Shown here: one piece after another, positions 27,854 through 31,739 of the stretch
How the letters are laid out: each line of letters begins with the position of its first letter
Position numbering within the stretch: the first letter of the stretch is position 1
NCBI RefSeq assembly: GCF_003790525.1
Contig: NZ_CP033635.1
Source: Escherichia coli
GTDB lineage: Bacteria; Pseudomonadota; Gammaproteobacteria; Enterobacterales; Enterobacteriaceae
Length of the DNA stretch: 64,000 nucleotides
Reading direction: 5' to 3' (one strand)
Notes under the pieces: generated by a model
Seen by the model: the letters and a program-made list of their open reading frames with translations, nothing else
Told to the model about the DNA's origin: nothing
The model's database searches: none
Position numbers and translations under genes: made by a program

Positions 27854-28519
27854 TTAACTCGCCTGCAAAGCGTTGATTTCGGATTTATCTGCCAGTCTTT
27901 TCAACAGCATATTGAGTAATACGCCATACATTGGCAGGAAGAAAACGATACTGATTAACACTTTGAAACAGTAATCGACCAGCGCGATTTCCATCCAGTG
28001 TTCAGCCATAAAGGCATCTGGGCTGCGCCAGAAGGCAATGAAGAAGAAGGCCAGCGTGTCGCTGACGTTACCAAACAGGGTGGAAGCCGTCGGTGCCAGC
28101 CACCAGCGACGACTCTGACGCAGGCGGTTAAAAACGTGCACGTCGAGGATTTGCCCCAGCGCGTAGGCCATGAAACTGGCGGTGGCGATACGGGCGACAA
28201 ACAGGTTGAAGTGGGCGAGCGCGCCGAATCCCTGCCAGGAACCCATATAGAACAGCGACGAGATGACGTAGGAGATCAGTAACGCCGGGATCATCACCGC
28301 AAAGATGATACGACGGGCCAGCGGTGCGCCAAAAATACGCACAGTCAGGTCGGTAGCAAGGAAAATAAACGGAAAGCTAAACGCGCCCCAGGTGGTATGG
28401 AAACCAAAAATGGATACGGGAAGCTGAACCAGATAGTTACTGGAGGTGATCACCAGAAGATGAAATAACGATAACCAGAACAACGCCTTATAGCGTTGAG
28501 TTTGCGAGAAAACGTTCAT
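27854..28519 (-). CDS. yhhQ: Queuosine precursor transporter YhhQ
   Basis: 221-aa polytopic membrane ORF matching YhhQ. Confidence 0.85.
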   Translation of the reverse strand: MNVFSQTQRYKALFWLSLFHLLVITSSNYLVQLPVSIFGFHTTWGAFSFPFIFLATDLTVRIFGAPLARRIIFAVMIPALLISYVISSLFYMGSWQGFGALAHFNLFVARIATASFMAYALGQILDVHVFNRLRQSRRWWLAPTASTLFGNVSDTLAFFFIAFWRSPDAFMAEHWMEIALVDYCFKVLISIVFFLPMYGVLLNMLLKRLADKSEINALQAS

Positions 28520-28739
28520 ATTGTACCTTTTTGATTAACCATTGGGGTGAGGGAACCCAATACGTACGACACGTCTGTTACCTTAACATAATAACGTGCT
28601 GACCCTTTTTTCGAGCCGCCGCATGATACTGCTTTACGTTAACAATGCAATGGTTAATTTTCACGCAATCGTTAACCTGGTTTGCTTACGGACTCACAGG
28701 GCGTAAACTAGCGCCGTTTTTTTATGTGATGAGAAGAAA

Positions 28740-28985
28740 ATGACCGATCTCTTTTCCAGCCCTGACCACACACTCGACGCACTTGGCCTGCGCTGCCCGG
28801 AACCAGTAATGATGGTGCGCAAAACAGTGCGCAATATGCAGCCAGGTGAAACGTTGCTGATTATTGCTGACGATCCGGCGACGACACGCGATATTCCTGG
28901 GTTTTGTACCTTTATGGAACACGAACTGGTTGCGAAAGAGACGGATGGACTGCCTTATCGTTATTTGATTCGCAAATCGGGGTAA
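28740..28985 (+). CDS. tusA: Sulfur carrier protein TusA
   Basis: 81-aa ORF with CPxP motif ([12 protein letters not shown]). Confidence 0.9.
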
Positions 28986-29038
28986 GGTGGATCAGGCTAG
29001 CGGACCGATCGCGCTCAATTTTGCGGCTTGCAACCGGT

Positions 29039-29176
29039 TTGTAGGACGGATAAAAAGTTCAAGCTGCATCTGGCGATACGGTGCGCAATGCCTGATGCGA
29101 CGCTGTCGCGTCTTATCATGCCTACGAGTTCGATGCCCTGTGTAGGCCAGATAAGGCGTTTACGCCGCATCCGGCA
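29039..29176. repeat. REP/BIME cluster
   Basis: Two inversely oriented REP-type palindromic units (GCCTGATGCGACGCTGTCGCGTCTTATCATGCCTAC and TGTAGGCCAGATAAGGCGTTTACGCCGCATCCGGCA) plus a partial unit. Confidence 0.7.
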
Positions 29177-29199
29177 CGCAAACGTAATGGAATGCACAA

Positions 29200-29508
29200 A
29201 TGGATTATTTAATTCCAGTTTGTCTGGCATTGCTGGGATTGCTCGCGATCTTCACCCCCAATTGGCTGATCCCTGTTTTTATCGTCGTGGGGGGATGGCT
29301 GGGGGTACTTGCCTGGGGTTGGCTCTGGCTAATGATTTTTTTACCTTTACTTAACGGTGTCGGGCTTGCTTATGCCCTGTGGTTGATGTTCAAAAGGCCA
29401 TCCATAGCATCCCGCCTGGTTGCTGCATGCTGTGTTATCTCCGTCATTCTGATGTTAGCGCTTTATTATGCTTTCCTGACTATGCCGCCGTTCCCGCCTC
29501 AGCACTAA
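29200..29508 (+). CDS. Hypothetical small membrane protein (3 predicted TM helices, Trp-rich)
   Basis: 102-aa ORF between the REP cluster and the zntA 3' end; strongly hydrophobic; no clear SD; may be spurious. Confidence 0.3.
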   Translation: MDYLIPVCLALLGLLAIFTPNWLIPVFIVVGGWLGVLAWGWLWLMIFLPLLNGVGLAYALWLMFKRPSIASRLVAACCVISVILMLALYYAFLTMPPFPPQH

Positions 29509-29540
29509 GCCTGATAGCCAGAGGCTATCAGGCAACACTT

Positions 29541-31739
29541 TTACTTCCTGCGCAACAATCTTAACGCATTCGCCGTCACCAGCACCGTCGCACCCGTATC
29601 TGCCAGCACCGCCAGCCATAGCCCGGTCATTCCTAACAGTGTGGTGACGAGGAAAACGCCTTTCAGCCCCAGCGCAATGGTGATGTTCTGGCGGATATTG
29701 GCGTGAGTGGCGCGTGCCAGTTCAATCATTTGCACCAGACCGCGCAGGTGGTTATGGGTTAATGCTGCATCGGCGGTTTCCAGCGCCACGTCTGTGCCAC
29801 TGCCCATTGCAATCCCGATGGCGGCAGCTTTCATCGCTGGCGCGTCGTTAATACCATCACCGACCATCGCCAGCGGCGCATGTTGATTCAGCTCGGTCAC
29901 CGCTTTGACTTTATCTTCCGGCAACAGGCCCGCTTTAAATTCCAGCCCCAACTCCCCGGCAATTGCCGCCGCGGCGCGTGGATTATCGCCGGTGAGGATC
30001 ACTCCTTTAACCCCCAGCGCGTTCAGTTCACTGATAGCAGTTGCAGCATCGGCGCGCAGGGTATCCTGCAACGCAATGACACCCAGCACGTCATCATTAC
30101 GTACTACCAGCACTACCGTTTGCCCGGCGCTTTCCAGTTCATTAATCAAACCAGCAAATGCATCAGCAGGATGTTTTCCGGCAGCGCATATCAACACGCG
30201 CTCACCGTTAACCTGCGCTTCAATGCCAGACCCGACCAGCGCCCGCTGTGATTGGGCGGTGGGAATGGCGAGTTCAGCAACCTGTGCTTCGCGCACAATG
30301 GCTTGTGCCAGTGGATGCGTCGCGCCTTGCTCGACCGCCGCCGCCAGTGTCAGCAGTTCAGATTCACTAATACCCGTTGCCGGATGAATCGCGGTAACGC
30401 GCGGTTTACCGACGGTCAGCGTACCGGTTTTATCAAACGCCACCTGGGTAACACGACCCAGCTGCTCCAGCGCCGCGCCGCCTTTAATCAACGCCCCACG
30501 ACGCGCTGCTGCCGCCAGCCCGGAGGTAATCGCCGCGGGCGTGGAGATAACTAACGCACACGGGCAACCAATCAGCAGCAGCGTCAGCCCTTTATAAATC
30601 CACTCTTGCCAGCTGGCGGCAAACAGCAGCGGCGGCACCAGCGTCACCAGCAGAGCGACGGCCATAATCGCTGGCGTGTAGATACGGCTGAAACGGTCGA
30701 TAAACCGCTCAATGGGGGCGCGACGCTCTTCGGCTTCTTCGATCAGTTTCAGAATCCGGTCAATGGCGCTGGCACCCGGTTCTGACAGCACTTCCAGCGT
30801 TACCAGACGGTCTACGCTGGTGGCACCAGCAGGGACTTTATCGCCCGTTGCGCGCTCCACCGGAATGGATTCTCCGGTCAGGGCGCTTTCATCAAAACTG
30901 GCAAACGGTGAGAGCAGTTTACCGTCGGCAGGCAAACGCCCACCTGCCGCAACTTCAATCACATCGCCAGGGCGCAGGCTGTTAATCGCCACCTCTTCAC
31001 GCTCACCGTTACGCAGACGCGTGGCGGTTTCCGGTTTCAGCGCCATTAACGCGCTAACGCCCTGACGCGCGCGGCTGGCGGCCCAGCCTTCCAGTCGTTC
31101 ACCAATCAAAAACAGCAGCAACACCATCGCAGCTTCAGCCGTTGCGCCAATAAACAGCGCACCAATAGCGGCTACGCTCATTAAGGTTTCAATGGCGAAG
31201 TAGCTGCCAGATTTGATCAGCCGTAATGCCTGACGAGCAATCGGGTACAGCCCAACCAGCGTGGTCGCGATAAACGCCAGTTGACCAAACGGATGATTGA
31301 ACTGCTCCAGACCCCAGCTGATTGCCATCATCACGATTAGCGTAATCAGCGGCAGATTCTCTTTCAGGCGTGATGCTTGTGGTTCGTCGGTGGTCTGTTC
31401 ATCGCGCAGGGAATAGCCCGCTTTTTGCACCGCAGATTCAACCTGGGCACGGATGTCATTGTCGGCATCGACTACCAATTTTTCGGTGGCGAACAACACC
31501 TGCACCTGATTCACGCCTGCAAGCTGGCGCACGGCATTTTCCACTTTGCGCGCACAGGCGGCGCAGTCCATGCCGCTGACTTTCCAGCTATAGCGGGTGC
31601 CGGAGACGCTTTCAGAGAGCGTTGGCGTGCTGGAACATGCGCCATCGCAGCAACAGTCGTTGGTGTTCTGTACCGTAGTTAGCGGTTTGAACGCAGCAAA
31701 TTGAGGGGCTTTCTTGCCGTGATTGTCAGGAGTCGACAT
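29541..31739 (-). CDS. zntA: Zn/Cd/Pb-exporting P1B-type ATPase ZntA
   Basis: 732-aa ORF with N-terminal metal-binding GMDCAAC, CPC transmembrane motif and DKTGTLT phosphorylation site. Confidence 0.95.
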   Translation of the reverse strand: MSTPDNHGKKAPQFAAFKPLTTVQNTNDCCCDGACSSTPTLSESVSGTRYSWKVSGMDCAACARKVENAVRQLAGVNQVQVLFATEKLVVDADNDIRAQVESAVQKAGYSLRDEQTTDEPQASRLKENLPLITLIVMMAISWGLEQFNHPFGQLAFIATTLVGLYPIARQALRLIKSGSYFAIETLMSVAAIGALFIGATAEAAMVLLLFLIGERLEGWAASRARQGVSALMALKPETATRLRNGEREEVAINSLRPGDVIEVAAGGRLPADGKLLSPFASFDESALTGESIPVERATGDKVPAGATSVDRLVTLEVLSEPGASAIDRILKLIEEAEERRAPIERFIDRFSRIYTPAIMAVALLVTLVPPLLFAASWQEWIYKGLTLLLIGCPCALVISTPAAITSGLAAAARRGALIKGGAALEQLGRVTQVAFDKTGTLTVGKPRVTAIHPATGISESELLTLAAAVEQGATHPLAQAIVREAQVAELAIPTAQSQRALVGSGIEAQVNGERVLICAAGKHPADAFAGLINELESAGQTVVLVVRNDDVLGVIALQDTLRADAATAISELNALGVKGVILTGDNPRAAAAIAGELGLEFKAGLLPEDKVKAVTELNQHAPLAMVGDGINDAPAMKAAAIGIAMGSGTDVALETADAALTHNHLRGLVQMIELARATHANIRQNITIALGLKGVFLVTTLLGMTGLWLAVLADTGATVLVTANALRLLRRK

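Follow-up and report, generated by a model that had tools for sequence, protein, structure and literature searches.

The open reading frame of 102 codons between tusA and zntA of Escherichia coli, here named ORF102, is in our judgement a genuine gene, with a probability of roughly 0.78. As judged from sequence comparison it would encode a small, non-enzymatic, polytopic inner-membrane protein of a very small unnamed family, which is found in a few Enterobacteriaceae and always lies directly behind tusA in the same orientation. The analyzed stretch of DNA, 64,000 nucleotides of an E. coli contig, is referred to here as the window. The first-pass annotation of this stretch had left the choice between a small membrane protein and a chance ORF in REP-associated sequence. 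Conservation, the substitution pattern and the homologues described below support the membrane protein, whose translation is predicted.

The genes tusA and zntA are convergent, as noted before, and the gap between them measures 555 bp instead of the 556 bp given previously (last base of tusA at 28985, stop codon of zntA from 29541). ORF102 occupies 309 nt of this gap (102 codons) on the same strand as tusA. The coordinates of the features are listed in Table 1. The stretch from tusA to zntA (560 bases) was 100% identical to that of E. coli strain 2016C-3878. With a GC content of 0.495 as compared to 0.516 for the window the ORF is ordinary in composition, and since the locus is fixed across the genus as well, a horizontal acquisition on a mobile element was rejected.

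ORF102 had been described as looking unannotated. This does not hold, since PGAP already labels it as 'hypothetical protein' (WP_000385055.1). The corresponding UniProt entry is an uncharacterised protein, and the exact protein was present on at least 1,000 contigs of a large protein collection. A literature search found no publication on ORF102. The gene is annotated already, yet uncharacterised.

Table 1. Features of the tusA–zntA region in the window, and DUF2004-annotated genes at related loci
Feature	Location	Strand	Description and basis
tusA	28740..28985	+	sulfur carrier TusA, 81 aa; ORF list, PGAP annotation of the identical locus
REP-a	29041..29075	.	degenerate REP palindrome with GTAGG head; sequence, sub-threshold match to Rfam naRNA4
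REP-b	29090..29125	.	canonical REP palindrome; 1 mismatch to consensus GCCKGATGCGRCGYNNNNRCGYCTTATCMGGCCTAC
REP-c	29142..29176	.	REP palindrome in opposite orientation to REP-b; sequence, sub-threshold match to naRNA4
GGAA	29189..29192	+	weak Shine-Dalgarno-like motif, 8 nt before ATG; upstream alignments
ORF102	29200..29508	+	predicted Trp-rich polytopic small inner-membrane protein (WP_000385055.1); sequence, conservation, homologues
T7 run	29336..29342	+	inside ORF102; recurrent T7-to-T6 frameshift leading to truncated products of 61 aa (P0034; L022, L023)
Inverted repeat	29509..29533	.	perfect 11-bp repeat GCCTGATAGCC-AGA-GGCTATCAGGC; fills the 32-nt gap between the stops of ORF102 and zntA
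zntA	29541..31739	-	Zn/Cd/Pb P-type ATPase, convergent downstream neighbour; ORF list, PGAP
DUF2004-annotated gene	L004:1871-2365, E. coli GF4-3	-	PGAP
DUF2004-annotated gene	L008:3369-3866, E. albertii	-	PGAP
DUF2004-annotated gene	L009:3378-3872, Escherichia sp. MOD1-EC7003	-	PGAP
DUF2004-annotated gene	L011:688-1176, enterobacterium outside the Escherichia set	-	PGAP

The length of ORF102 alone is not beyond chance. Spurious ORFs of 108–160 aa are found in the window as well, e.g. antisense to zntA, and the significance of ORF102 therefore rests on its conservation. Among 5,426 complete E. coli genomes its DNA was detected at 317 places in 317 genomes, all of them chromosomal, and every carrier locus that was inspected had the ORF between tusA and zntA. 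Because the ORF DNA occurs only once per genome, with repetition confined to the REPs upstream, a REP-derived origin of the coding sequence was rejected.

To describe the conservation across the genus we compared nine Escherichia loci. These were: the window, three more E. coli alleles with identities of 98.9% (L005, over a 348-nt query), 94.6% (L004) and 92.4% (L003), and five species representatives obtained by a scan of GTDB genomes, namely Escherichia sp. E1V33, 'E. coli' SCPM-O-B-8794 (a separate species cluster), E. albertii NBRC 107761, Escherichia sp. MOD1-EC7003 and E. whittamii. In all nine loci ORF102 was exactly 309 nt long and free of indels and stops. The pooled pN/pS of this set was 0.38 with no stop codon, and this combination was seen in frame +1 only; the other frames had either a pN/pS of 0.8–2.0 or 4–11 stops. 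Variable sites were distributed over the codon positions 1, 2 and 3 as 22, 16 and 39 (chi-square p=0.004). The antisense frame -2 had a low pN/pS too, but was interrupted by 4–6 stops and was rejected as a real gene.

Between pairs of the four E. coli alleles omega ranged from 0.11 to 0.40. The flanking genes were more constrained across Escherichia (pN/pS of 0.06 for tusA and ~0.02 for zntA), so that selection on ORF102 is real but moderate. Taken together, the alignments indicate conservation of the frame throughout the genus Escherichia, with purifying selection of moderate strength. Conservation and dN/dS had been named before as a check of the ORF, and its outcome is in favour of a coding gene.

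The same applies to a second proposal, to ask whether the ORF persists when the REP array changes. The spacer between tusA and ORF102 varied with the REP content of the loci and measured 136, 144, 146, 214, 215, 253 and 453 nt, while ORF102 had 309 nt throughout.

In several pairs the pS of ORF102 was below that of tusA and zntA, e.g. 0.067 against ~0.31 for the window and L007 (strain SCPM-O-B-8794). This hints at recombination of the segment between Escherichia lineages or at an extra constraint at the nucleotide level. Separately, we observed that the 92% E. coli allele, found in O145-type strains, was nearly identical to the allele of Escherichia sp. E1V33.

With 317 carriers, ~94% of the 5,426 complete E. 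coli genomes are without the gene. In K-12 (L002) the REPs, ORF102 and the hairpin downstream of it are all gone and a gap of 101 bp is left. Strain NC101 (L021) has kept all three REPs and is missing ORF102. As these two deletions differ, ORF102 was deleted at least twice independently within E. coli. It is accessory and dispensable. In the carriers the gene appeared mostly intact: among 40 evenly sampled complete carrier genomes a CDS was annotated at the locus in each one, and in 37 of them the identity and score of the alignment were equal to those of an allele that had been checked to be intact.

Disrupted alleles do occur. The loss of one T from the T7 run within ORF102 was found on two allele backgrounds, the window type (strain B093) and the 98.9% allele (ERR4563795), which suggests either recurrent slippage or a homopolymer sequencing error. 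P0032 lost a single base a few codons past this run. Other frameshifts are by their positions attributed to runs of G6 and C5 close to the 5' end; in these alleles the start assigned by gene callers falls in the overlapping +2 frame ('MECTNG...'). Part of the frameshifts may represent homopolymer sequencing errors in draft assemblies. As a side observation, the +2 frame of the window holds a spurious ORF of 108 aa (29028-29354, + strand), which overlaps the REPs as well as the 5' half of ORF102. Gene callers extend into this frame for frameshifted alleles, and the resulting 'proteins' are chimeras, e.g. P0024 (168 aa) and P0026.

Frameshifts or stops in close relatives had been expected to speak against the ORF. 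Frameshifts in relatives were indeed found, but only in a minority, at homopolymer runs, and beside a large intact majority under purifying selection. Such a distribution fits a dispensable gene and not a non-gene.

A different reading of the same losses is that ORF102 is a decaying relic, which was functional in the Escherichia ancestor, is now in effect neutral in E. coli and is heading to loss, its intact frame reflecting a recent relaxation. Besides the absence from 94% of the complete E. coli genomes and the at least two deletions, this would be in agreement with the recurrent frameshifts at C5, G6 and T7 runs, with a Shine-Dalgarno sequence weaker than that of the homologues, and with the state of a short paralogue and of the DUF2004 gene nearby, both of which are already lost or broken in most lineages (see below). 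We nevertheless consider a relic unlikely. Omega between the window allele and the three other E. coli alleles was 0.11–0.36 without any stop or indel, the sampled carriers all have an annotated CDS that in 37 cases matches checked-intact alleles, and some of the frameshifts may be the mentioned homopolymer errors in draft assemblies. ORF102 as a maintained, though dispensable, gene is the reading which we follow here.

To search for distant homologues, a profile of the Escherichia proteins was compared by HMMER with 1.84 billion representative proteins. Nine matches were obtained in total: one intact protein of the Escherichia type, five fragments thereof, one repetitive protein of 360 aa, P0039 (83 aa, E=1.2e-5) and P0042 of Huaxiibacter chinensis (84 aa, E=9.7e-4). 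The repetitive 360-aa protein was taken as noise. A third short form, P0081 (86 aa as called), came from an indexed search. The short forms thus have 83-86 aa and are 35-39% identical to ORF102, and they are found in Huaxiibacter and two other enterobacteria. An HMM built from the short forms only matched residues 23-101 of the protein of the window with 46.9 bits. Omega between two of the short forms was 0.64.

The genes of the short forms follow tusA in the same orientation at a distance of 35-49 nt (L011, L012-L015, L016), and their loci are syntenic with the order yhhT-yhhS-dcrB-yhhQ-tusA ... zntA. That all three short forms occupy the same slot next to tusA argues against a chance similarity of hydrophobic proteins. 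The members have significant profile similarity to each other, and in the nine Escherichia loci, which include the window, as in the short-form loci the gene directly follows tusA in the same orientation. Behind tusA at the loci of Klebsiella pneumoniae, Superficieibacter and Scandinavium and at L017 no trace of the gene was found. As far as the searches reach, the family appears to be patchy, tiny and limited to a few Enterobacteriaceae.

Searches of Pfam (E<=1), NCBIfam, PHROGs, PADLOC and PDB sequences gave no usable family match for ORF102. A match to the monovalent cation/H+ antiporter subunit F (NF009243) reached 17.1 bits (E=0.0069) against a curated cut-off of 95 bits and was rejected as an effect of hydrophobic composition only.

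The homologues outside of Escherichia adjoin tusA directly without any REP. Together with the single-copy nature of the ORF this contradicts the earlier idea of a chance ORF in REP-associated sequence, and the association of ORF102 with REPs appears to be incidental.

A further feature common to the family forms is located upstream. In the alignment of the nine Escherichia loci, L011, L012, L016 and the short paralogue of L007, a AAGGAATG motif was found 8-9 nt before the start codon. The window has a weakened TGGAATG instead of AAGGAATG, which the Escherichia species of L007 retains. The ORF had been reported to be without a recognisable Shine-Dalgarno sequence; as the GGAA of the window aligns with the conserved AAGGAATG and is a degenerate form of it, the sequence is degraded and not absent. 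No sigma-70-like site was detected in a promoter and terminator scan of low sensitivity, which missed the tusA promoter region too.

These data also bear on the possibility that the conserved sequence is non-coding, as a 3' region of zntA or tusA or as a REP-associated structure, and that the open frame is accidental. Such a reading could draw on the ORFs of ~100 codons which arise by chance in the window, on the weak Shine-Dalgarno sequence, on the promoter scan and on the low pS of ORF102 relative to its flanks with its possible constraint at the nucleotide level. However, it does not account for the excess of third-position changes and the frame-specific pN/pS, nor for the complete lack of indels over 309 nt in nine lineages beside an indel-rich spacer. 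It also fails to account for homologues of 35-39% identity which in other genera occupy the same slot with a conserved Shine-Dalgarno sequence, and the antisense frame of similar pN/pS carries stops. We regard an accidental frame as very improbable, and it is largely refuted already.

The predicted protein is very hydrophobic and rich in Trp, as stated before (GRAVY 1.45; 6 Trp among 102 residues, 5.9%). Its charged and His residues are D2, K65, R66, R72 and H102, five in all. The AlphaFold model (pLDDT 77.6) consists of helices at residues 4-18, 24-65 and 69-94. A Foldseek search of this model against the PDB gave nothing with E<1 and only generic helical hairpins. For the short form P0039 (pLDDT 75.4) helices were predicted at residues 4-19, 22-45 and 49-77. 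N-P-D marks a break, which aligns with residues 39-42 (W-G-W-L) of ORF102, where the other short forms have N-D or S-D. For this reason the helix of 42 residues is most likely a helical hairpin. The three transmembrane helices assigned previously thus agree in number with the AlphaFold model, but one of these is 42 residues long and the comparison with the short forms indicates four. Based on the models we consider four transmembrane helices most likely.

In E. albertii NBRC 107761 (L008:3001-3306) W41-L42 within the Trp cluster is replaced by E-P (AWGEPW; G-E-P in the alignment). This non-conservative exchange is consistent with a turn between two helices.

According to the positive-inside rule, both termini of ORF102 (the N-terminus with M-D) would be located outside, with four helices between them. 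The only basic loop (K65-R66...R72; KRPSIASR) would be cytoplasmic and the Trp cluster W39, W41 and W43 would be placed at a periplasmic turn. The short, putatively ancestral form would have three helices and an N-terminus inside (M-K/R). Residues 1-19 of ORF102 resemble residues 21-39 as well as the N-terminus of the short forms, and a double match was found too; at 6.6-11.5 bits the signal is weak. The extra N-terminal helix of the Escherichia form was probably generated by a tandem duplication of helix 1.

Eleven residues are invariant in the whole family: P25, G32, W33, G55, L60, M63, R72, S81, M85, L88 and F98. No Cys, His or acidic residue is conserved across the family alignment, which argues against catalysis or metal/sulfur chemistry by the ORF102 protein itself. 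The conserved Gly, Asn and Ser residues in the helices may serve packing against the protein itself or against a larger membrane protein, with ORF102 acting as accessory or modulator. From the alignment, a structural or modulatory membrane subunit is the most likely role.

A membrane-active type I toxin or a holin-like prophage remnant, which would damage the membrane, is hardly credible: ORF102 is small, very hydrophobic, dispensable and sporadically inactivated, but with 102 aa and three to four helices it contrasts with the single helix of type I toxins of <60 aa, no Rfam antitoxin sRNA was found in 28500-29800, the charged C-terminal tail typical of holins is lacking, PHROGs and PADLOC gave no match, and the gene has a GC content close to that of the window and a fixed chromosomal slot across the genus, flanked by core genes and with no mobile-element genes nearby.

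Upstream of ORF102, at least two REP palindromes had been described in the gap and three are present. REP-b differs from the 36-nt REP consensus at one position only, a match that occurred in none of 100 shuffles, and forms an inverted, BIME-like pair with REP-a. REP-a and REP-c both fit the pattern GTAGG...GATAA...GCATC.GGC. The elements are imperfect palindromes of ~35 nt which match the consensus and have a GTAG(G) head, and they are of a kind that is dispersed in many copies over the extragenic DNA of each genome: the query part containing the REPs gave 29,143 matches in 5,339 of the 5,426 complete E. coli genomes, with a median of 5 in each (annotation 'none'). Positions 29086-29176 of the window, including REP-c, likewise match thousands of sites in E. 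coli genomes. REP-a is absent in strain 95-3192 and in K-12. The REP region folds somewhat better than shuffled sequences (z = -2.4).

The Rfam family naRNA4 (RF02564) is REP-derived and is transcribed from the REP325 cluster. The pair REP-a/REP-b aligns across the full 77-nt model (29044-29122) but with 46.6 bits stays below the gathering score of 59.5. A second sub-threshold match was located at 29145-29179. The naRNA4 match reflects common REP sequence and is no evidence for a naRNA gene.

Only 23 nt separate the end of REP-c from the start codon of ORF102, which leaves no room for a promoter. Considering in addition the distance of 35-49 nt between tusA and the homologues elsewhere, co-transcription with tusA is the simplest model, and the transcript of ORF102 would arise by read-through from the promoter of tusA. 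In operons such as malEFG, with REPs between malE and malF, REP/BIME elements stabilise the upstream mRNA segment and reduce the expression of the distal gene. By analogy, the REP array between tusA and ORF102 in Escherichia may be an mRNA-stabilising or attenuating element, where the inserted REPs would protect the tusA segment from 3' exonucleases and attenuate the distal expression. In both cases canonical REP palindromes are placed between two genes of the same strand; in contrast to malE-malF, the co-transcription of tusA and ORF102 is inferred only and the number of REPs varies among the lineages. Together with the weakened Shine-Dalgarno sequence, the REPs might keep the membrane protein low relative to TusA.

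Downstream of ORF102 the inverted repeat was kept in all seven loci with zntA directly after ORF102, among them the window, L003, L005, L006, L007 and L010. A few bases were changed: in L003 the first base of the stem, in L007 the base of the right arm beside the loop, and in L010 the loop. The loop (29520-29522) reads AGA in most loci and its complement TCT in E. whittamii (L010) with an unchanged stem, which looks like an inversion of the loop. In K-12 the hairpin is missing along with ORF102. The hairpin fails a simple terminator rule and was not flagged by the terminator scan. It is probably a bidirectional terminator or an mRNA-end structure common to both convergent transcripts.

The tusA–zntA interval showed additional differences among the lineages. 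In some loci, though not in the window, a convergent gene of ~164 aa is present between ORF102 and zntA, which PGAP annotates as a DUF2004-domain protein; a Pfam search gave no match for this protein. Strain SCPM-O-B-8794 carries a second, short-form ORF102 paralogue directly after tusA (L007:2575-2825), which starts with MKYAMPVFLALVSWL. A frameshift in a T8 run splits this paralogue; with T9 it would encode ~84 aa similar to the Huaxiibacter form. Its presence beside ORF102 defines a lineage with tandem paralogues. The short paralogue was absent from all complete E. coli genomes searched. In Huaxiibacter and in L016 a dctPQM TRAP transporter operon was found in the gap. Based on the compared loci, the ancestral order in Escherichia was probably tusA, (short paralogue), ORF102, convergent DUF2004 gene and zntA.

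Directly after tusA, K-12 (L002:3151-3251) and NC101 (L021:643-700) carry a G-rich palindromic element CCCTCACCCTAACCCTCTCCCCAGAGGGGCGAGGGGACCG which is not present in the window. The zntA-tusA gap of K-12 has been listed as a predicted G-quadruplex-hairpin site (PMC5100583). The last codons of tusA encode RKSG in the window and RKGG in K-12.

Among described proteins, ORF102 is closest in kind to the small polytopic inner-membrane proteins of E. coli, e.g. the neighbouring DUF1145 protein YhhL (~90 aa). It is similar to this class in size (80-105 aa), extreme hydrophobicity, few positive charges in one loop and the lack of catalytic residues. The setting in a cluster of membrane-protein genes (yhhL, yhhM, yhhN, zntA, yhhQ) is similar as well. 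It differs in that no Pfam or NCBIfam family resembles it by sequence or profile, in a far narrower taxonomic range and in the fixed adjacency to tusA. The kind of protein is ordinary, while the micro-family tied to tusA is previously undescribed.

What suggests a functional link to TusA is the gene order only. The pairs YeeD-YeeE and TsuB-TsuA take up thiosulfate, and the membrane proteins belong to the YedE/YeeE family (Pfam Sulf_transp). YeeE-type proteins have ~330-350 aa, nine helices and essential conserved cysteines. As in the YeeD-YeeE pairs, a TusA-fold carrier and an integral membrane protein are encoded by adjacent genes of one strand. In contrast, ORF102 and the short forms have 83-102 aa, no invariant Cys and no Pfam match at E<=1. 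Due to the missing Pfam match, the lack of conserved Cys and a quarter of the size, the pairing with YeeE is an analogy of gene order and not a family relationship. It would be a bold and quite improbable extension to see in the family a dedicated membrane partner of TusA, i.e. a minimal three- or four-helix protein which tethers or feeds the sulfur relay, for instance coupled to uptake or export of sulfur compounds, and which is retained only where this route matters, with the tandem paralogues forming a hetero-oligomeric channel.

With the present analysis an ambiguous hydrophobic ORF in REP-rich DNA becomes a defined and testable family of small membrane proteins. Its traits are a restricted taxonomic range, strict synteny with tusA, an apparent duplication of a helix and repeated loss in E. 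coli. Genes like ORF102 are typical of the accessory small-protein fraction which annotation pipelines label as 'hypothetical'. The TusA sulfur relay of E. coli is regarded as purely cytoplasmic, and if the linkage to tusA is functional, a membrane component would be added to this system. Otherwise ORF102 would be a modest case of a decaying gene in an intergenic hotspot of variation, where REPs were gained and lost, a G-rich hairpin was inserted and the DUF2004 gene disappeared.
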